DNA of 64,000 nucleotides from Octopus vulgaris (Eukaryota): positions 50,840,001 to 50,904,000 of the forward strand of contig OX597830.1 in NCBI GenBank assembly GCA_951406725.2, written 5' to 3'. The notes below the pieces were generated by a model. The model was not told the DNA's origin and did no database searches. It saw nothing but the letters and a program-made list of their open reading frames with translations. The position numbers and the translations under genes were made by a program. Position 1 is the stretch's first letter. Each line of letters begins with the position of its first letter. Of the stretch, positions 23,424-60,740 are shown piece by piece.

Positions 23424-23767
23424 GACGTGGGAGTGGCTGTGTGGTAAGTAGTTTGCTTACGAATCACATGGTTCTGGGTTCAGTCCCACAGCGTAGTACC
23501 TTGGGCAAGTGTCTTCTACTATAGCCTCGGGCAGAACCAAAGCCTTATGAGTAGATTTGGTAGACGGAAACTAAAAGAAGCCCGTCGTATATATGTATAT
23601 ATATATTTATATATATATATATATATATGTTTGTGTGCCTGTATTTGTTCCCCCAACATCGCTTGTCAAGCGTGGCACCTTCGGCAAGTGCCTTCTACTA
23701 TAGACTCGGGCCAACCACAGCCTTGTGAGTGGATTTGGTAGACGGAAACTGAAAGAAGCCTGTCGTA

Positions 23768-23818
<51 letters not shown>

Positions 23819-24033
23819 ATATATTTGTGTTTCTGTGTTCCTCCCCCCCCCCCCCAACATCGCTTAACAACCGATGGTGGTGTGTTTACGTCCCCGTCAC
23901 TTAACGGTTCTGCAAAAGAAACCGATAGAATAAGTACTAGGCTTTCAAAGAATAAGTCATGGGGTCGATTTGCTCGACTAAAGGCGGTGCTCCAGCATGG
24001 TCACAGTCGTATGACTGAAACAAGTAAAAGAGA
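23424..24033 (+). mobile_element. SINE family A with internal tandem duplication of the body
   Basis: Body restarts at gcgtggcacctt (23670) after catcgcttgtcaa. Confidence 0.9.
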
Positions 24034-24152: not shown

Positions 24153-24527
24153 CCTTTCTATTATATGCACACGACCCGAAATTTGTGGGGGAGGAGGCCA
24201 TTCGATTAGATCGACCGCAGTACGCGACTGGTACTTAATTTATCGAACTCGAAAGGATGAAGGGCAAAGTCGACCTCGGCGGAATTTGAACTCAGAACTT
24301 AAAGCCGGAGGAAATTAAGCTAAGCCTTTTGCCCAGAGTGCCAACGATTCTGCCAGTTAGGCACGGGGTCTGCAGTTTCGTAGAAACGGGCTGGTCGATT
24401 ATATTGACCTCATTTTTCAACAGATACTTATTTCCTCGAGGATGAAAAGCAAAGTCGACCTGATCGGAATCTGAACACAGAACCAAGCGACAGGCGAAAT
24501 GCTACTAAACATTTCGTCTAGCACGCT

Positions 24528-32236: not shown

Positions 32237-34659
32237 ATTAAGTTATTATAATTATATTTGTTAGACAGAGTTACTTGCTTTAAGACTAAACTACATAATT
32301 TAAGACTGGATTATATAACTTAAAATTATAAGATTGAAGACATATTCATATAATTTACGAAACGGTTCTAAAATATATGGTATGTTTATATAAGCGATAA
32401 TATGGCTCTGTATTTTAAGAAATGTTTATGTATTCTATGACTTAATTATGTGAATCAATTCTATGAAACGTAAGACATTTATGAAATGTAAGTGTGCAAA
32501 TTAAAACAAAAAAATGTATTTTAATAAGAGACAAATTTTGAGAGAATATGGCTGCATATGTTGTTTCGCATCAAATATTCTCGGTAAAGAAGACAACGAT
32601 AAATACAATGCAAATGCGTTTATACTTATGCCCTGCTGTAACTGTGTCCTTTGTACTGCTGGTACCATGTTTTATCCTGCAGTATCTCACTCCATCCTCG
32701 ATAAGCTGGTGTTTTATAATATTCTCATATGCTTCTTTTAATATAACGTTATCTGGTTGATGCCTCTACGAAAATTCAAAGGTTTCTTTGAAGCAGCGCT
32801 CAGATTTCCCCTAAGTGGTAAATTACTACTTTACAACAGATAAAGTAGTTTAGCAATATGCTCTTTAGATTCTCTGTATTTAGTAAAATCAGGTTGGGCT
32901 TGAGCTGATCATAGGTCTACTTGACTTAGCGCTAGTCAATAACTACAACAAAGACTTCAGCAGAAAAAAAAACAAAACATCACCAACAGCGGTAATTATT
33001 CGTATTTCAGGTAGTTTATGAATGATCTTCAGTATAGAGCCAGCAAAGGTATGCGTTCTTTTATCTATTGAAAGAAAGTGTAGATGTAGTATTCTATGTC
33101 CTTGATCGTCGTTCGTTCGTACAAGAGTCCCAATTATTCCTGTATGAGATATTTTGTTATTGTGTCTATTTCAACGCCCTTTGTTTCTTGTTGAACATTT
33201 AGAAACACTGTCCTGAATGTTGTATTTCTCGGCCAAGCAAAGAAGACATTTTTCTTAAAGTACATCACAGCTTCAGCCGGATGCAGCTTATATGGTTGTT
33301 GACAGTGTCCTCTCAACCCCCAGATGTACTAGGATAGTGAAATCGAATTCTTCTAGTTTATAAAAACGATGTTCATTGTTGATTACGCCCACGTCATTGC
33401 TATTCAGTTGACCAATAATGAAGGCCATTTCAGCGGTAACTTTCATATTATGTTCGGAAAATACTAAAGTCTAATTTGTTGGCCCGATATACGTACATTT
33501 GATGCGGTTTTGGGGATAGCATGAGTTGTTAGTAAGCTAGTGACATTCTGTGATTCTGTCTATTAAAAGGCCAAAACAATATTTTGTGATCTAATCTATT
33601 GCACCCGGCTGTTTAAGTCAGATATTTTACTTTTACATCTAATTAATAAAGTGGTGTTGTTGTTCAATGAATGTTTATGACATTTTTATTGAACTTCTCA
33701 TGGTACATATACACACAGAAATATATTGTCTGCGTGCGGGCGTGTGTGTTTGTGTGTGCGTGTGTGTGCGTGTGTGTGTGTGTATGTGTGTGTGTTTGCG
33801 TGCGAGCGTGTGTGTGTGTAATCGGTCTTCCTCTCTCTATTCTTTCAGTTCAAATCCTGCCGAAGTCAACGTTACTTTTTCAAGCTCTAGAGATCGATAA
33901 GTGAAGTACCAGTTACGTACTGATGTCATGTCATTCACCAACTGTTTCTTTCTGTCGGTCTGTCTTTATCTTCTGGAAGAAATTAAAAGAGATCAGACCA
34001 GGAGAAGGATGTGCACTACCAGGTCTTCAAAATACTCAGGTTTCGCTGTATATCTTGATGGCGTCTCTACAACTCCTTCGGTGATTTCAGACTTCAAGGC
34101 AGTAAGGGATAGCGTAAAACAGATAATAATTACATAAAATCAACGATAAGTTTGATTTATTCGATTTGTATATGTGAAATCTTTACAATTTGCACAAACC
34201 ATAACTTTTACCAATATTAATATTATAGCATTTCTTAAGAAGTGGGGAAAAAAGCTATTTATGTATTCACAAGTATTTTTAATGGAGCGGAAAGTTCAGA
34301 TTTGGTGAAATTATATATTCTTGCACAAGAAAATTCAACTATCTCTACTAGATGAAGAATTACAGGGAGAGAAAATTTACTGGGTTTCAATGCATAAATT
34401 ACATGGGCAAACTGAGAGGGAAAAAGAAAGAAAGAAATAAAAGGTAATTTTTTAATAATTTCAGTAAAAAAATACAAAGAATACAAAGCAGAGAAAGCAC
34501 ATTTCTTTAATTCCACATTAAATCTCAGCACAGAAAGTTTATCCAATGGGAAAGCAAAATATGAATAGGGGCTGCGATCAACGGAATCCTAAATTGCATC
34601 AAAGAAAATTTTAGCAATCGTATATCTAACCTTTAATAACGCAGAGGAAAATATATGTA

Positions 34660-35075: not shown

Positions 35076-35580
35076 GATTATTTAAGTTACCGCAAGTTTT
35101 AACTGGACACACACTAGAGATGCTTAAACGACCGTCCAAACTATATAAAGCAACCCATTTCAAACAATCCAATACAAAAAAAAAAGAGAATAATTTTCCT
35201 TTAATCTTTCTCATTATTTAAATGTTACCAGAACTCTAATAGAAATGCTTCTAAGATGTCAATGTAGAAATAGATTCAATGAAAACTCGAAACTACTTCT
35301 TTGAAAACGCCAACTCAATTTACGAAGTTTTGCTCTCTACTTGAGATGTTAACTTTTAAATCTGTCTATTTCGAACAAAATCGAACTAATTTAAAATATT
35401 TTAAGAGACCACAATCTCGGTTCCATACCCAGCCTCTTTCAATATTGACCATTTCGTTGATTGTATCTTTCCATTATTTCCCGATGCCAATAACAAATGC
35501 AAAAATAAATTTATTTTCAATTTAGCTTTGCACTCAGTATCTCATCTAAATTTAAAAATAAATAAATCACCTTAAAGGCA

Positions 35581-35827
<247 letters not shown>

Positions 35828-38800
35828 CAGTAGTTTTATTTTTATATCGTGCTTTCACTTCACTACTGAGCGCAGCTCTGTGTGCCTTAGGTATGTGCTG
35901 TGATTTGTTGTGATGCTCTGATGGTTATTGTATGGGAAGTGTTCTGCGTAGGATGTGTGCAGTGCCTAGTAGTGCAATTTTCTGTATGTTATATGTGTTT
36001 GTAAGTCCTGGTGTTTTTGTTATGTATTTGTCTGAATATTTTTTTATCATGCCTAAAGCACCTACTATGATTGGAATTGTTTCTGTTTTTAGATTCCACA
36101 TTCTGGTTACCTCTATTTCCAGGTCTTTGTATTTTGAAAGTTTCTCCATTTCTTTTAGAGATACGTTGTCATCTGCTGGTATTGATACATCAATTAGAAA
36201 GCATTTTTTTTTCTTCATGATCTCTGACAACTATATCTGGTCTGTTGGCCTTAATTTCTCTATCTGTGTGTATCGGCATATCCCAGAGTACGGTTGCTTT
36301 CTCGTTTTCTGTGACCTTTTCTGGTGTGTGCCTATACCATCTTTTTTCTGTTGTTATTCCATAATGTTGGCATAGCTTCCAGTGTATGTAGGTTCCAACT
36401 CTGTCATGTCTGTGAATACATTCTTTCTTAGCCAGGACTGGGCAGCCAGAGATAATATGATTTATTGTTTCTTGTCCATCTCCACATATTCTGCAGTTAC
36501 TTGTTATATTTCTTTTCATTACATGTTTTTGATAATTTCTGGTGGGGAGGCTTTGGTCTTGTGCTGCAATTAAAAATCCCTCTGTTTCTGCTTTGAGTCC
36601 TGAGCTACTCAACCATTGCTGGGATTTTACTTTGTCTATTTCTTTTGCGTTTAGTTTAGTCCAGTATTTACCATGAAGGGGCTTTTCTTGCCATTGTTTT
36701 ATCATGGTTCGTTGCTGTTCTATTTTTAGTTTGGATTTCATTTGTTTTATAGCTTTTGTTGTTTCTTCATCTTCTTCTTCTTCATATTTATTAAGTGGTA
36801 TGATTTCTGGTTTGTATTTGTCAACTTCCTTAAATACTGAGAAGAGTTTTTTGTTTTGCTCGTGTTTTGCCGCTATTTGTATCAGTTTTCCTTCCTTCTG
36901 TTTGCCAATTATTCATAGAGTGCCTTATGAATTTTATAATTGTTGGTGCTACTTTGTTAATGGCTAGTGTTTCGGGGATCCATGTGTGGGGGATGCTATC
37001 AAACGCCTTTTTGTAGTCGATCCAGGCCATACTGAGGCCTTTCTTCTTTCTGTGGCTGTCCTCAGTTATGGCTTTATTAATCATTAGTTGATCTTTACAG
37101 CCATATGAGCCTTTGCGGCATCCTTTCTGCTCTTCTGGAAACAGGTTGTTTTCGTCCAGGTGCTTGTTCAACCTTTGTGATATCACTGCCGTAAATGCCT
37201 TGTACATTGTAGGGAGACAGGTTATTGGTCTGTAGTTTTCTGGTTTTGCTGTCTCATTTGATTTGGGAATTAAGATGGTTTTCCCCTTCGTGAGCCATTC
37301 AGGCATTGTCTCTGGCTCAGCTAGTATGTTGTTAAAGTTTTCAGCCAGTTTTTGTGCATTCCTGTTAGATATTTCAACCAGAAGTTGGGGATTTTGTCAT
37401 GCCCAGGTGCCTTCCAGTTGCTTAGTCTTTGCAGTGCCTGGGTGACCTCTTCAGTTGTTATGGGGGTCCAAAGTTGTTCAGATGCTGAGTTTGTTGTTTT
37501 AATAGTCCTTTTTTTTTGGTTGTTCGTTCGCCGACCATATTTCTCTCCAGAATTCTTCCACTTATTCTGCCGTTGGTGCTGCAGTGATTTCTATTTTATT
37601 TTTGCCAAGTTCTTGGTAGAACTTTTGGGGTTGGAGTTGAACTTTTTGTTTTGCTCAAAGAAGCGCTGGCGTTTCTCGTACCGGCGGATCCTTTGTGCTT
37701 TGGCAAGTATATCTTGCTTCAGCTTTTCTTTTATCGCAGGTAAATATTTTTCTGTGATGTTATATTTGCGGAGTATTTTTGTTTTCTTTTTGTTGCTCAG
37801 TAGCGTTGATTGGCTACTGATTTCATTAAGAACCGACAGATCTTTTCTCATTTTTTGTATTTTGTTTTGGATGTTATTTATCCACAGGGTTTGTTTGGGT
37901 GGTGGTACTCCTGTTTGGATGGGTTTGAGTGAGTATCTAGCTTCTTTTGTGGCTGCAGTGGCTGCTGCGTATATTAAGTCATTTAGCTCAGTGATATCGC
38001 TTTTTGTTTCAGTTGCTATTAGTTCCGTGACGGCTAGGTTTATGCTGTTTATAATTGGTATTGTTGTTTCGTCTATTTTGATTTTTGGAAGGTATGGTCG
38101 GTGGTCCATTTTGAGCTCTGTGGTTTTCAGTTCTTTGATTATTCTACTTTTTATATTATCATAATCATTAGGCTCCCCTTCGTTGTTTCCAGGTTTTAGA
38201 TTTGTGTCGCTTTCTTTCTTATTTATATGTTTGTGTGTCGTGTTTTGGCTTGCTGTTTATCGTGTATTATTATGCATCCTTACGGTCTGGGTTTGTTGTT
38301 TTTTGTTTACATCGTGTTTGTTGGGAATGTTACGTTTGTCTTCGTATTTTACTGTTTCAGTGTTTATATTATTGGGCATTGTTGTGTGGCTTCTATCTAC
38401 ATTTTCCTGGTGTATTTTTTCTTTTAGATGTTCTATTTCTATTTCTGATATTTTTTTGCGTTGAGAATGTATCTTCGTACGTTAGCTAGTTTATTAGGGT
38501 TCATTGCTGTATCCAAGTCTATATTTATGTTATTTTCCTTCCATATTTTATATGTATGTGTTGTTGTGTTTTCATTTTTTGGGTAGAGCACTGCTGTGAA
38601 GTATGCGTGTAGGATAGAAATGTATTCCTCTCGTGTCCATTTATGTCTTTTGGGTTTTATTTGCGGGACATGAGGGACAACGTGCGGCCCATTATTTTGA
38701 CGGTCGTCATTTTAGTAAGGTACCGGTCCGTTCATTTCTGTTGTCACATTGTTTTGCACGTGTAGATTTTCGTACATTTTCTGTTGTAAGTTTAAAGTAC

Positions 38801-47586: not shown

Positions 47587-49048
47587 TTGGTACTTAATTT
47601 ATCGACCCCGAAAAGATGAAAGTCAAAGTCGACCTCGGCGGAATTTGAACTCAGAACGTAACGGCAGACGAAATACCTATTTCTTTACTACCCACAAGAG
47701 GCTACACACAGAGGAAACGAACAAGGACAGACAAAGGGATTAAGTCGATTAAATCGACCCCAGTGCGTAACTGGTACTTTATTTATCAACACCGAAAGGA
47801 TAAATGGCAAAGTCGACCCGGCGGAATTTGAACTCAGAAGGTAGCGGCAGACGAAATACCTATTTCTTTACTACCCTCAAGGGGCTAAACACAGAGGGGA
47901 CAAACAAGGACAGACAAACGGATTAAGTCGATTATATCGACCCCAGTGCATAACTGGTACTTAATTTATCGACCCTGAAAGGATGAAAGGCAAAGTCGAC
48001 CTCGGCGAAATTTGAACCCAGAACGTAACGGCAGACGAAATACCTATTTCTTTACTAACCACAAGGGGCTAAATACAGAAGGGACAAACAAGGACAGACA
48101 AACGGATTAAGTCAATTAAATCGACCCCAGTGCGTAACTGGTACATAATGTATCGACACCGAAAGGATGAATGGCAAAGTCGACCTCAGAACGTAGCGGC
48201 AGACGAAAAACCTATTTTTTACTACCCACAAGGGGCTAAACGCAGAGGGGACAAACAAGGAGAGACAAACGGATTAAGTCGATTACATCGACCCCCAGTG
48301 CGTAACTGGTACTTAATTTATCGACCCTGAAAGGATGAAAGGCAAAGTCGACCTCGGCGGAATTTGAACTCAGAACGTAACGGCAGACGAAATACCTATT
48401 TCTTTATTACCCACAAGGGGCTAAACACAGAGGGGACAAACAAGGACAGACATAGGTATTAAGTCGATTACATCGACCCCAGTGCGTAAGTGGTACTTAA
48501 TGTATCGACCCTGAAAGGATGAAATGCAAAGTCGACCTCGGCGGAATTTGAACTCAGAACGTAACGGCAGACGAAATACCTATTTCTTTATTACCCACAA
48601 GGGGCTAAACACAGAGGGGACAAACAAGGACAGACATAGGTATTAAGTCGATTACATCGACCCCAGTGCGTAAGTGGTACTTAATGTATCGACCCTGAAA
48701 GGATGAAAGGCAAAGTCGACCTCGGCGGAATTTGAACTTAGAACGTAACGGCAGACGAAATACCGCGGAGCATTTCGCCCAGCTTTTTTTTTTTTTTTTT
48801 TGTACTTGTTTCAGTCATTCGACCGCGGCCATGCTGGAGCACCGCCTTTAGAGTGGTGAAAGAGTACAGCAGGGATCACCACCATCCCCTGCCGGAGCCT
48901 CGTGGAGCTTTTAGGTGTTTTCGCTCAATAAACACACACAACGCCCGGTCTGGGAATCGAAACCGCGATCCTCCGACCGCAAGTCCGCTGCCCTAACCAC
49001 TGGGCCATTGCGCCTCCAGCTTGCTAACGTTTCTGCCAGCTCGCTGCT
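47587..49048 (-). mobile_element. SINE family B concatemer: one head plus six ~184-bp units plus a partial unit
   Basis: Unit boundaries at 47678, 47861, 48045, 48213, 48397, 48581; head split into 48765-48783 and 49019-49048 by a nested SINE. Confidence 0.92.
48784..49018 (-). mobile_element. Chimeric SINE (family C 5' half plus family A tail, poly-A) nested in the B head
   Basis: C sequence 48851-49018, A tail 48803-48850, T-run 48784-48801; ccagctt on both sides. Confidence 0.85.
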
Positions 49049-49470
49049 ATTATTGTTACTGCTTCTTGTGCATCGTCTTTTTTTATATATTATACCCGCA
49101 AGGAGAAAGATGTTTATGATCCACTTTCACAACCATATTGGATCAAGAATTCTGTACGAGCATTGCTGAGTTCTCTCTTTCTTATGTTGAAAGTTCTACG
49201 ACCATGGGAATGTGGTGATATATACAGACCTAAATATTTGGAGAGAGGCAGAGTTAACGACCTGAAGAGACACGGCACGTGCTAATCAGTTAAAGTCTAC
49301 TCCGGACATATCGATAGAAAGCCATCATGATTCGAAGTCTGTTTGTATGGATGTATGTGTGTATGTAAGCTTGTATGTATGTATAAATATGTGTACGGAT
49401 ATAGACATGTGTGAATATATGTGTATGTGTTTGAATGAATGTATGTATATATGTGTTGTTGTATGTATGT

Positions 49471-49523
<53 letters not shown>

Positions 49524-49595
49524 CATGTATACACATAAATACAACAATACATGTATACATAGATTTTGTCATACATACATACATACATACATACA

Positions 49596-49631
<36 letters not shown>

Positions 49632-50006
49632 TATATACAGATATACATGCACATATATTCATACATGAATATACGTGAACACACATAACATAAATATATA
49701 TATATATACGTATATATATATACGTATATATGGGCTGAGAGGGAGCAACAGCATGTGAGGTATGAGATGAAAAGACAGGGGCGTGTGAGGTGATTTTGAG
49801 GAGCCAATTAATGGCGTCATTAATTGTATCGGGAGTGTTTAATTAAAAATCTTTCTTTCGACTGAAACACGAAACTTTCTCCGTGATGTTTCAAACTTTA
49901 TTGCATTTTACATTCATCATATTTACACCCACTGTCGCCGACAACTAAAACACCCTCTACCGCTGCAGCGACACCACCGACTCCACCACCATTACTGATA
50001 TGAATA

Positions 50007-50066
<60 letters not shown>

Positions 50067-50221
50067 GTTCCATTGACAGCAGCGTTCTTGTGGCTGCCGG
50101 AGCTAGTTGAAATAACAGTCGTATTTCCATTGCCTTTCGTTATCATCTGTCGATGAATTGACGCCACATTATACAGACCAAGAAAGGGAAGGGATGGCCT
50201 CGGTTGGAGTGCTTTTGTGCC

Positions 50222-50548
50222 TAACTGGCACTTAATTTATCGACCCCGAAAAGATGAAAGGCAAAGTCGACCTCGGCGGAATTTGAACTCAGGACGTAAA
50301 GACAGACGAAATACTTATTTCTTTACTACCCACAATGGGCTAAACACAGAGAGGACAAACAAGGACAGACGAACGGATTAAGTCGATTATATCGACCCCA
50401 GTGCGTAACTGGTACTTATTCAATCGACCCCGAAAGGATGAAAGGCAAAGTCAACCTCGGCGGAATTTGATCTCAGAACATAACGGCAGACGAAATACGG
50501 CTACGTATTTCGCCCGACGTGCTAACGATTCTACCAGCTCGCCGCCTT
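50222..50548 (-). mobile_element. SINE family B: head plus full unit plus partial second unit
   Basis: Junction gacgaaatacttatttctttac at ~50306-50327, same as in the array. Confidence 0.9.
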
Positions 50549-51434
50549 CATACCTTCATACCTTCATACCTACATACCTATCCCCATACCTACTTACCTG
50601 TTTACCTACTTACCGTAAGAGAGTTCAAACCGGTCGCTAACCAAACAAGACTTTTTTGCGTTAAGAGAGTTCCTACTGTTTGTAAATGTATAATGGAGTT
50701 TGTGCGTTGGTTAAGCTGTCATTAAACACACTTGGGAGTGCATTTCAATCCATCCAAAGAATCTCAGATGTAGTACCTTTGGAGTGTCTTATAAATTCTT
50801 CTCTGTACCGCAAATAGTTTCGTTTGCTCTTTCTTCGAAAAACCTAGGTTTTCAAGTCTTGTGTCTAAATTTGCAGGTACAATCTCCCATTCCTCACTTC
50901 CTCTTTCTCTCCCTGACTTTGCTTTATTTCTTCTTTCTCCTCCACTTTCTTCGTCCTTTAGCTTTTTATTTCGCTTCTCTCTCTATTATTGCTCTCATTT
51001 TCTTTCTTTCATTCACTTTAGCTTACAGCGTTGTATATCATTTAGATGCTTGGTTCTTATTTTAATTTTCCATCTACACCTTTTATTCTAATCTTTTATT
51101 ATAATCTCAACTTTTAAATACCTAATTTTGCAATCCTATTATTCCTTTTAATTATTTGCAATTTCTATTTCTGGATATACTCTGTTCATTTTTACTCGCT
51201 TTTATACAAAATTGCTTTCCATTTAAATAGTAATTATTGTTTATTCTACCGTTAAGGTTAACCCCCTCTGGCAGCCCACGCTGTTATTTTTTAAGAGTCA
51301 GTCACCCAATAAAATTCAGTTGTATATTCGTTTAACTGTAATGACTACATTATATTATATTATATTATATTATACTATATTATATTATATTATACTATAT
51401 TAAATGTACCCACACAATTTTTTATATGGTTTTA

Positions 51435-53249: not shown

Positions 53250-53481
53250 ATATTTCTTTATTGCAAACAAAGGGCTAAACACAGAGGGGACAAACAAAGA
53301 CAGACAAACGGATTAAGTCGATTACATAGACCCCAGTGCGTAACTGGTACTTAACTTATCGAACCCGAAAGGATGAAAGGCACAATCGACCTCGGTGGAA
53401 TTTGAACTCAGAACGTAACGGCAGACGAAACACAGCTACGCATTTCGCCCGGTGTGCTAACGTTTCTGCTAGCTCGCCGCC
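53250..53481 (-). mobile_element. SINE family B monomer, TSD catgcatatat
   Basis: Full head and tail; TSD at 53239-53249 and 53486-53496. Confidence 0.9.
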
Positions 53482-54968: not shown

Positions 54969-55770
54969 CACACACACACAAACACACACACATATGTAAA
55001 TATATACATATATACATACAGAAGAGTCTATATCATACATACATATCCTTTCATACAGTCACTCAACCACACCGTGACGCGTCTATATGAGAATCAAAAT
55101 CCATTGGAATATTAGTTTAGAGAAAATGTCTTGAAAAGAACGGAAACAGTAAGAGTTTTACAATTTTATCAACACAGAAGAAAAAGACATTAAATAGAAA
55201 ACAGAGTAAATATTGTGGCAAAATAGTTTATTTTCTTTATGTATTTCTGATAATTTTATTATAATTTACTCATTTTTTTCTTTTTTTTTTATTTCACAGG
55301 AAAGGCAATAATATTTCAATATACATGACATTTTCTACGTCTGCTATATTCTTCGAGCTCTTTCTCTTACCGTCTTTCTTCTTTACATTCTTTTTATATA
55401 TAAATAAATTTTATAGCTATTATCATTTTTTAATGTTCTTGCTGTTACTGTTGTAGTTAGATTATGTCGATTAATCAGCTAATAAAAATAAATAAAAATA
55501 AGTTGAGCAAGAAAAAACAACCAGCAAATATACGAGCTGAGAAGACGTGTGGCATTTTATATGCATTCATAAAACCTTGATATATTCGAATCATTATTCT
55601 CAAATTGAAATGGTGAGTGTTGTGTGAGTTGCGTGAATGAGTTGTTTGTCTGTATCCTGGGGTGCATTCATTCACACGCACACGCACACACACACACTCA
55701 TGCGCGCACCACGTACACACATATATATGTGTATACATGTATTTATATATCTATATCTATATGTATATTA

Positions 55771-55999
55771 AGACGGCGAGCTGGCAGACACATTAGTGCG
55801 CCGGGCGAAATGCTTAGCGGTATTTCGTCTATCGTTACGTTCTGAGTTCGAATTCCGTCGAGGTCGACTTTGCCTTCCATCCTTTCGAGGTCGATAAATA
55901 AAGTACCAGTTTCGCACTGGGGTCGATGTAATCGACTTAGTCCCTTTTTCTGTCCTTCTTTTTCCCCTCTATGTTTAGCCCCGTGTGGGCAATAAAGAA

Positions 56000-56001
<2 letters not shown>
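55771..56001 (+). mobile_element. SINE family B monomer
   Basis: ggcgagctggcaga..gagttcgaattcc..gaggtcgactttgccttccatcctttcgaggtcgataaa..aaagaaat. Confidence 0.9.
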
Positions 56002-57835: not shown

Positions 57836-58240
57836 TTTTTTCTACTCTAGGCAGAATACAGTTCTATATTTAAGCGATGAGGAATTATGTACCTTATTTA
57901 CATCATTTACATTTGACCGATATTAGTCCTCATCTTGTTTGTTGTTAACAACAACGTTTCGGCTGATATTTCCCCGGGAGACCTGATGACGGCTGGAGGG
58001 TATACGGACAAATATCCGTCAAATGAAAATAATGTAAATAATCTAGGCACAAGGCCCGAAATTTTGGGGGAGGTGGTCAGTCGATTAAATCGACCCCATT
58101 ACTGAATTTATCGACCCCGAAAGGGTGAAAGACAAAGTCGACATCGGCGGAATTTGAACTCAGGACGTAAAGACAGACGAAATACCGCTAAGCATTTCGC
58201 CCGGCTTGCTAACGTTTCCGCCAACTCGCCGCCTTCGAAA
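57836..58240 (-). mobile_element. SINE family B with TSD catataattct, interrupted by a 188-bp insert
   Basis: TSD at 57825-57835 and 58241-58251. Confidence 0.85.
57854..58041. mobile_element. Penelope pLTR-like insert with inverted repeat and split hammerhead halves, 8-bp TSD
   Basis: TSD tctaggca (57846-53, 58042-49); IR 57894-57929 vs 58006-58041; ctgatga.ggctg on plus, cagccgaaacgttg on minus. Confidence 0.7.
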
Positions 58241-60507: not shown

Positions 60508-60739
60508 TATTGCTTTACTACCCACAAGGGGCTAAACACAGAGGGGACAAACAAGGACAGACAAAGGGATTAAGCCGATTACATCGATCCCAGTGTGTAA
60601 CTGGTACTTAATTTATCGACCCCGAAAGGATGAAAGGCAAAGTGGACCTCGGCGGAATTTGAACTCAGAACGTAACGGCAGACGAAATATCGTTAAGCAT
60701 TTCGCCCGGCGTGCTAACGTTTCTGCCAGCTCGCCGCCT

Positions 60740-60740
<1 letters not shown>
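60508..60740 (-). mobile_element. SINE family B monomer, young, in (TA)n
   Basis: Near-consensus full copy. Confidence 0.92.

Follow-up and report, generated by a model that had tools for sequence, protein, structure and literature searches.

The question raised by this locus is how a SINE comes to be repeated in tandem with the same join every time. In the 64,000-nucleotide stretch of Octopus vulgaris DNA analysed here (the window), TRF reports a tandem array at 47588-48764 with a period of 184 bp and 6.5 copies, as well as a 352-bp period, and a second, shorter element bears the same join. A sequence-only reading had proposed that rolling-circle copying of a circularised 184-nt SINE RNA, or programmed template jumping, produced both. 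We ask here whether the join was made once and inherited or has been made repeatedly, and whether RNA or DNA was the substrate. Positions within the SINE (233 nt) are counted from 50548, on the minus strand of the second element, and the features are collected in Table 1.

Table 1. Parts of the array and of the second element, with the full monomers used for comparison (window coordinates).
Feature	Positions	Strand	Basis
Array head, 5' part, SINE positions ~1-32, with the A box	49020..49047	-	sequence comparison
Nested in the array head: a tRNA-type SINE of another kind, with poly(A) tail and 7-bp target duplication	48782..49019	-	
Rest of the array head, up to SINE position 49, forming the predicted head hairpin's 5' arm and loop	48765..48781	-	
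U1, 184 nt, SINE positions 50-233; 2 differences from U2	48581..48764	-	
U2, 184 nt	48397..48580	-	
U3, 184 nt; tail with one base gained and one lost	48213..48396	-	
U4, 168 nt; B box lost through a 16-nt deletion; 4 derived changes common to U6	48045..48212	-	
U5, 184 nt	47861..48044	-	
U6, 183 nt	47678..47860	-	
U7, partial last unit, 90 nt (SINE positions 50-139), lacking both tail and target duplication	47588..47677	-	
Second element (B), intact head, SINE positions 1-49	50500..50548	-	
B1, full unit of B, 184 nt; 14-24 differences from array units	50316..50499	-	
B2, partial unit of B, 99 nt, SINE positions 50-148; other-tail subfamily variants	50217..50315	-	
Full monomer, same subfamily, 13-bp target duplication	53251..53481	-	
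Full monomer, same subfamily	55770..56001	+	
Full monomer, same subfamily, within (TA)n	60508..60740	-	

The sense strand of the array is the minus strand, along which a head, six units and a partial unit follow one another. This is the order that had been described, except that the six units had all been given as 184 bp and U4 and U6 are shorter. The head does reach the SINE start as claimed, but a nested 238-nt SINE of a different type splits it into 49047-49020 and 48781-48765. Each unit, including the five middle ones (U2-U6), represents SINE positions 50-233, retaining the B box and lacking positions 1-49 with the A box, and matches the corresponding part of the dispersed monomers at 53251, 55770 and 60508. 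These three monomers have a common tail end, beyond which microsatellites follow, and the array units stop exactly at that point. An A box-like motif lies at positions 13-23 and a B box-like motif begins at 77, so that the proposed restart between the two boxes, at position 50, is borne out. Neither ARAGORN nor Rfam called a tRNA in the SINE.

Each of four public runs yielded 125108-301714 contigs matching the family, in line with dispersed copies, and among the five window elements with the array's tail two carry the junction. A core of about 45 nt is common to this SINE and to a SINE-like element with a different head from another host (metagenome contig L001, 1355-1569). It may bear on a place in MetaSINE or another core-domain superfamily, groups defined by a conserved central domain. 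The only LINE compared, a remnant at 35501-38600, has no tail in common with the SINE; within it, 35924-38256 (-) is a broken non-LTR retrotransposon with Pfam RVT_1 and zf-RVT matches that ends in a (TAA)n/(TGA)n microsatellite and that we take to be of Dong/R4 type from its look. Other repeats in the window include a head-to-tail pair of the other-tail subfamily at 24202-24516 (-), whose second copy restarts near position 12, and a different repeat at 23490-23828 with a 178-bp unit in 1.9 tandem copies. The SINE nested in the array head (48782-49019, -) may itself be chimeric, its head and its last 70 nt matching separate sets of window copies.

The junction pattern, allowing up to three mismatches, occurs at seven window sites and at none in 100 shuffles. 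A fixed GAAATA-GG-TATTTC had been claimed for every junction; five of the seven read exactly so, while U3|U4 reads AAAATA-GG-TTTTTC (three mismatches) and the second element GAAATA-AG-TATTTC. The restart at position 50 coincides with the loop edge of a long predicted head hairpin, and in the second element the predicted 3' arm begins with this base. Since GAAAT is present both in the tail and in the 5' arm of this hairpin (positions 38-42), joining the tail to the 3' arm always rebuilds a hairpin and, judged from the sequence, the palindrome requires no circle. Of 203 restart points, 5 in the second element and 7 in the 55770 monomer would give a 6-bp stem with the tail (a post hoc count, 2-3%). 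The restart site thus looks structure-guided, which is compatible also with repeated formation.

The shared GAAAT also allows an explanation at the DNA level only, namely a slip between the two GAAAT copies with loss of the hairpin loop, followed by ectopic recombination or gene conversion that carried the join into resident SINEs. A contig joint reading GAAATG, like the head, the local growth of the array at the DNA level (see below) and the lack of target duplications would all be expected of it. An extra 6-nt deletion of the loop is needed, however, and conversion should leave tails, which both elements lack; we consider this route quite unlikely.

Folding predictions bear on whether the tail could reach the restart site. 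In all three folded full monomers positions 52-57 are predicted to lie within the head hairpin (P 0.96-1.0) and pairing with the tail is 0, because the head hairpin occupies the site. With the head removed, the tail is predicted to pair with positions 52-57, strongly in U5 (P 0.72-0.99) and weakly in U2 (P 0.07-0.09), and a predicted fold of a U5 circle keeps five tail pairs.

Is the join peculiar to this window? Contigs of four public runs (X1, X4, X5 and X8, representing four organisms and four studies, 4 of 24 listed runs) were aligned to the head plus B1; one of the four may be the window's own source, and the contig counts are incomplete and so indicate presence rather than copy number. 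The joint from the tail to position 50/51 (50498 to 50316) was present in at least 13, 28, 9 and 10 contigs in X1, X4, X5 and X8, respectively, and was the best supported in all four runs among the joints listed (15 of 540). Together with two neighbouring rows it accounts for at least 23, 51, 16 and 19 contigs, a sum of 109 out of the 141 contigs that fall in the five listed tail joints. The other two (50483 and 50456), with unread letters in between, may represent this join too, with divergence over part of the sequence, and one further tail joint is listed with 21 intervening letters. The five rows of these joints that are listed with their intervening letters all give a 184-nt unit, with GG, TG or GT at the join (12 of 668 such rows were listed, and small length variation among the rest would still be compatible), and one listed joint is the GAAATG form mentioned above. 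No microhomology is seen in the contig joints (the value for letters assigned to both sides is 0). In X8, 301 loose ends fall at 50498, and their consensus begins with the junction (agreement 0.51). The sequence-only reading had held that variation of the junction among loci would count against it; the same unit boundaries recur at two window loci and, among the joints listed, in the contigs of all four runs.

The same contigs contain full head-to-tail joins of other subfamilies, which are common among the joints listed (3-12 contigs per row). Loose ends at 50407 (775-1216 contigs) were considered as a fixed end and rejected, their consensus continuing as another subfamily, and a step in contig depth at position 50 was set aside given that depth is not copy number and that changes private to the second element and 5' truncation confound it. 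Exact-pattern scans for the array elsewhere gave 0 and 0 matches in viral contigs, 0 in prokaryote genomes and, in metagenomes, 0 and then one locus that proved to be a different SINE.

The second element had been reported at 50222-50548 with the same junction; the join is indeed the same except for AG in place of GG, and the element spans 50217-50548, comprising a head, one full unit and a partial unit with no middle units. It was also possible that it is a local duplicate of the array, which would have undermined the earlier inference. We rejected this possibility since the flanks of the two match over no more than 9 nt outside the SINE and B1 differs from the array units at 14-24 sites, the level seen among dispersed monomers (10-28). 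Just upstream, and overlapping its first four bases, lies an 8-bp tandem repeat (50545-50579) that resembles a slipped 5' join.

Of the 99 sites of B2, 13 are unlike those of B1, and the differences follow a subfamily pattern. Three of its six derived changes are common to the other-tail copy at 58079 and none to B1, and its T at position 65 is present in four of the five other-tail copies, while the 10 aligned same-tail segments all lack it. The head likewise carries T at position 21, the state of 4 of 5 other-tail copies, and B1 has no other-tail look. As B2 bears variants of another subfamily it was not copied from its own first unit, which argues, from one case with three shared sites, against the element having been made from a single template; its founder looks chimeric between subfamilies.

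This subfamily switch is the best evidence, albeit from one case, that the join was remade. On linear RNA, for instance, the SINE transcript might be cut at 49|50 and the freed 3' piece might pair with the tail of a full-length copy, the two being connected through ligation or a jump of the reverse transcriptase; this chimera would then be retroposed with the piece's tail-less end and duplicated as DNA. Such a route would explain why B2 and B1 differ in subfamily, why the 3' arm of the hairpin in the second element is predicted to start exactly at 50, and why the join lacks microhomology, and it agrees with the predicted pairing of the headless U5 tail and with the tail-less ends of both elements at 139-148. 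Template jumps often gain or lose bases, however, and the listed joints keep the 184-nt unit. The weak predicted pairing of the U2 tail, the dependence on a single chimera with three shared sites, and the lack of an end cluster in the contigs (a poor source for ends) also detract from it. Template jumping by the R2 reverse transcriptase has been described (PMC11194090), and we regard remaking on linear RNA as doubtful but deserving real weight.

The other-tail states of the head and of B2, which B1 does not share, could also arise by site-specific self-insertion, in which a SINE enters a resident SINE tail-first at 49|50, at a nick in the loop, and its 5' end is resolved by homology. The head and the last unit would then belong to the resident copy. 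In that case the resident tail should persist, and both elements are without one; U7 should be older than the other units, and with two changes in 90 nt it is not. No two-headed intermediate is found among the joints listed (15 of 540), and the signal in the head amounts to one or two sites. We therefore consider self-insertion unlikely.

The relationships among the six units speak to how the array grew. U1 is separated from U2 by 2 differences over 184 sites and shares six derived changes with it, U4 and U6 share four, and U1, U2, U3 and U5 share one. In total 10 derived states are shared among the array units, whereas the uniform null gives a mean of 1.5 (none of 20000 replicates as high) and the hot-site null a mean of 4.4 (P 0.002); a site that is polymorphic within the family was omitted from the test. 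Without U1 the excess gives P 0.0004 under the uniform null and is not clear under the hot-site null (P 0.06). This hierarchy points to local DNA duplication and suggests a two-unit block duplication and a recent single duplication, so that the founder was probably shorter than six units and perhaps resembled the second element.

A single pass round one RNA circle predicts that the units decay independently, and the hierarchy thus leaves rolling-circle copying weak. In its fullest form, reverse transcription of a 184-nt circular SINE RNA would be primed internally and end with a switch to a head-bearing template, and it would account for a fixed, blunt, hairpin-forming join, for partial last units and for the tail pairs predicted to be kept in the U5 circle. 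The units are not star-like, however, B2 and B1 show subfamily-type differences, the head is absent from the circle, positions 52-57 are predicted to be locked in the head hairpin of all three monomers, and no ribozyme was found. The excess of shared derived states, the subfamily of B2 and the position of the head outside the circle together speak against one-step copying of the six units, and we judge rolling-circle reverse transcription very unlikely.

The partial units end at SINE positions 139 (U7) and 148 (B2). They had been noted to stop at nearly the same place, and they do lie 9 nt apart; two uniform ends fall this close 10% of the time, however, and the contigs of the four runs reveal no fixed end site (contigs show ends poorly). 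Both units stop just beyond the core common with the L001 element, where that core ends, and a non-array copy (33847-33922) also ends near 150. The ends of U7 are predicted to pair with each other (47588-47677, -; positions 50-55 with 133-138, P 0.91-1.0), leaving one unpaired base, and no end-to-end pairing of this kind is predicted for B2. At 50217-50231 two changes make the end of B2 a perfect 5-bp hairpin, 14 nt of which match the reverse strand of the junction of the 24.3-kb dimer (E 0.11, probably chance). In both partial units, and in no full unit, a C-to-T change at unit position 64 gives a T4 run (at about 47614 and 50252). We rejected it as a terminator because it is a single shared change that an old copy carries as well, and because 22-30 nt separate it from the ends.

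Target-site duplications were looked for around both whole elements, as had been suggested, and none was convincing; the longest flank matches measure 5 and 3 nt, and 20% of random pairs of flanks match over 5 nt. An intact 5' end with a tail-less 3' end had been presented as the reverse of ordinary truncation. It is less unusual than that, for tailless retropseudogenes and SINEs have been described whose 5' end is intact and whose 3' end lies within the RNA, internal priming being held responsible (Noll et al. 2015, PMC5322556). Those therian, L1-driven retroposons are 5'-complete and 3'-truncated with defined breakpoints and target duplications of 8-35 nt (PMC5322556), whereas the octopus elements showed neither a target duplication nor a defined breakpoint.

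The reading we prefer, which we hold tentatively at not far short of an even chance, is that a template jump of the reverse transcriptase likely created the join on one occasion, that read-through transcripts bearing the head likely dispersed it by retroposition, and that DNA duplication likely multiplied it in place. A single founding jump at the RNA level would have joined the tail to position 50. Pol III could then have read through from the intact head, and retroposition of head-bearing transcripts would have dispersed the join, with occasional internal priming giving the tail-less last units. A founder consisting of head, unit and partial unit would already contain a 90-bp direct repeat able to seed unequal exchange between the repeated stretches, which may have led to growth to six units while keeping the junction constant.

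The 13-bp target duplication on the related monomer at 53251 and the precedent of the squamate satellites discussed below favour this scenario, as do the one joint that leads in all four runs among the 15 of 540 listed, the 10 shared derived states and the units free of T4. T4 runs are absent from the monomers B and 60508, from U1-3, U5 and U6, and from 6 of 7 full units. The variants in B2 weigh against it, and an inherited join would need an additional homologous switch or conversion to account for them. Retroposed multimers, moreover, should often keep tail and target duplication, and both elements lack both; the shared-change excess without U1 is unclear under the hot-site null, and the seemingly structure-guided site (5/203) would fit repeated formation too.

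Two further classes were considered and rejected. Retrozymes are hammerhead-bearing circular-RNA retroelements with tandem units of 150-400 nt and a short palindromic stem, whereas the octopus array has no hammerhead and has a Pol III head. The unit contains no CTGANGA on either strand and no HDV-like skeleton, and for the array Rfam returned nothing even with E allowed up to 10, which led us to reject a retrozyme or other self-cleaving origin; otherwise Rfam gave just sub-threshold, microsatellite-driven miRNA and snoRNA matches. A TRIM or tandem-array LTR element of the Helenus or Cassandra type was rejected since the repeated 90-nt piece starts with GG and is not of TG...CA form, the head is found on the first copy only, and there is no convincing target duplication.

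The suggestion that a SINE has here been turned into a satellite fits a published class, the SINE-derived satellites sSat1-3 of squamates (Vassetzky, Kosushkin and Ryskov 2023, PMC10702118). In these, too, the repeated unit is shorter than the whole SINE and constant from locus to locus, and the leading unit extends to a SINE terminus; alternating subvariants and, in one example, a shortened last unit are also described. Long, homogeneous arrays biased towards subtelomeres are a further mark of the class. The unit of snake sSat3 starts in the 3' part of the head and includes box B, and the 179 nt of sSat3Ati2 comprise part of the head, the body and the LINE-derived region (PMC10702118). The octopus family has the corresponding features: dispersed monomers, at least four middle units (in the array only), head positions 1-49 before U1 and B1, and shared boundaries. 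It differs in its invertebrate host, in being short and lying among ordinary interspersed repeats, in one chimeric-looking founder, and in a join that rebuilds a hairpin with the tail, of which the accessible text on sSats makes no mention (PMC10702118). Head-to-tail chains are also known for Dip and Alu, some of them retroposed as multimers, and those repeat full-length SINEs (PMC10702118), whereas the octopus unit is without positions 1-49 and the A box. Full head-to-tail joins do occur in the octopus SINE family too (in contigs and at 24202-24516), and template switches between SINE RNAs have been proposed (PMC4824008).

In the literature searched we found no description of this tandem form, including the accessible text of PMC13282606, PMC9115989, PMC4758252 and PMC10886601 (Helenus); repeat libraries, figure alignments and supplements may hold it. 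The best reading is that of a dispersed family of seeds for SINE-derived satellites, akin to the squamate sSats, with the six-unit chain likely a new case of such satellites.

In its accessible text, the sSat study leaves open by what route numerous dispersed loci acquired one and the same unit boundary and whether such satellites exist outside squamates (PMC10702118). The octopus family combines a single-base, structure-linked boundary with an intact promoter head and with subfamily markers to either side of it, and owing to this combination an assembled genome could separate a join inherited once from one that has been remade. If inherited, the family would be a neat example, from an invertebrate, of a class already known; if remade, it would represent an RNA-processing route to the birth of satellites. 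We can also speculate on a programmed RNA event, in which the SINE RNA would be cut at the hairpin loop, the tail would splint the freed end, and the product, a linear chimera or a 184-nt circle, would be retroposed repeatedly and seed satellites genome-wide. We see this as possible while leaning against it; were it true, it would define, for the first time, a molecular path by which a SINE gives rise to its satellites.
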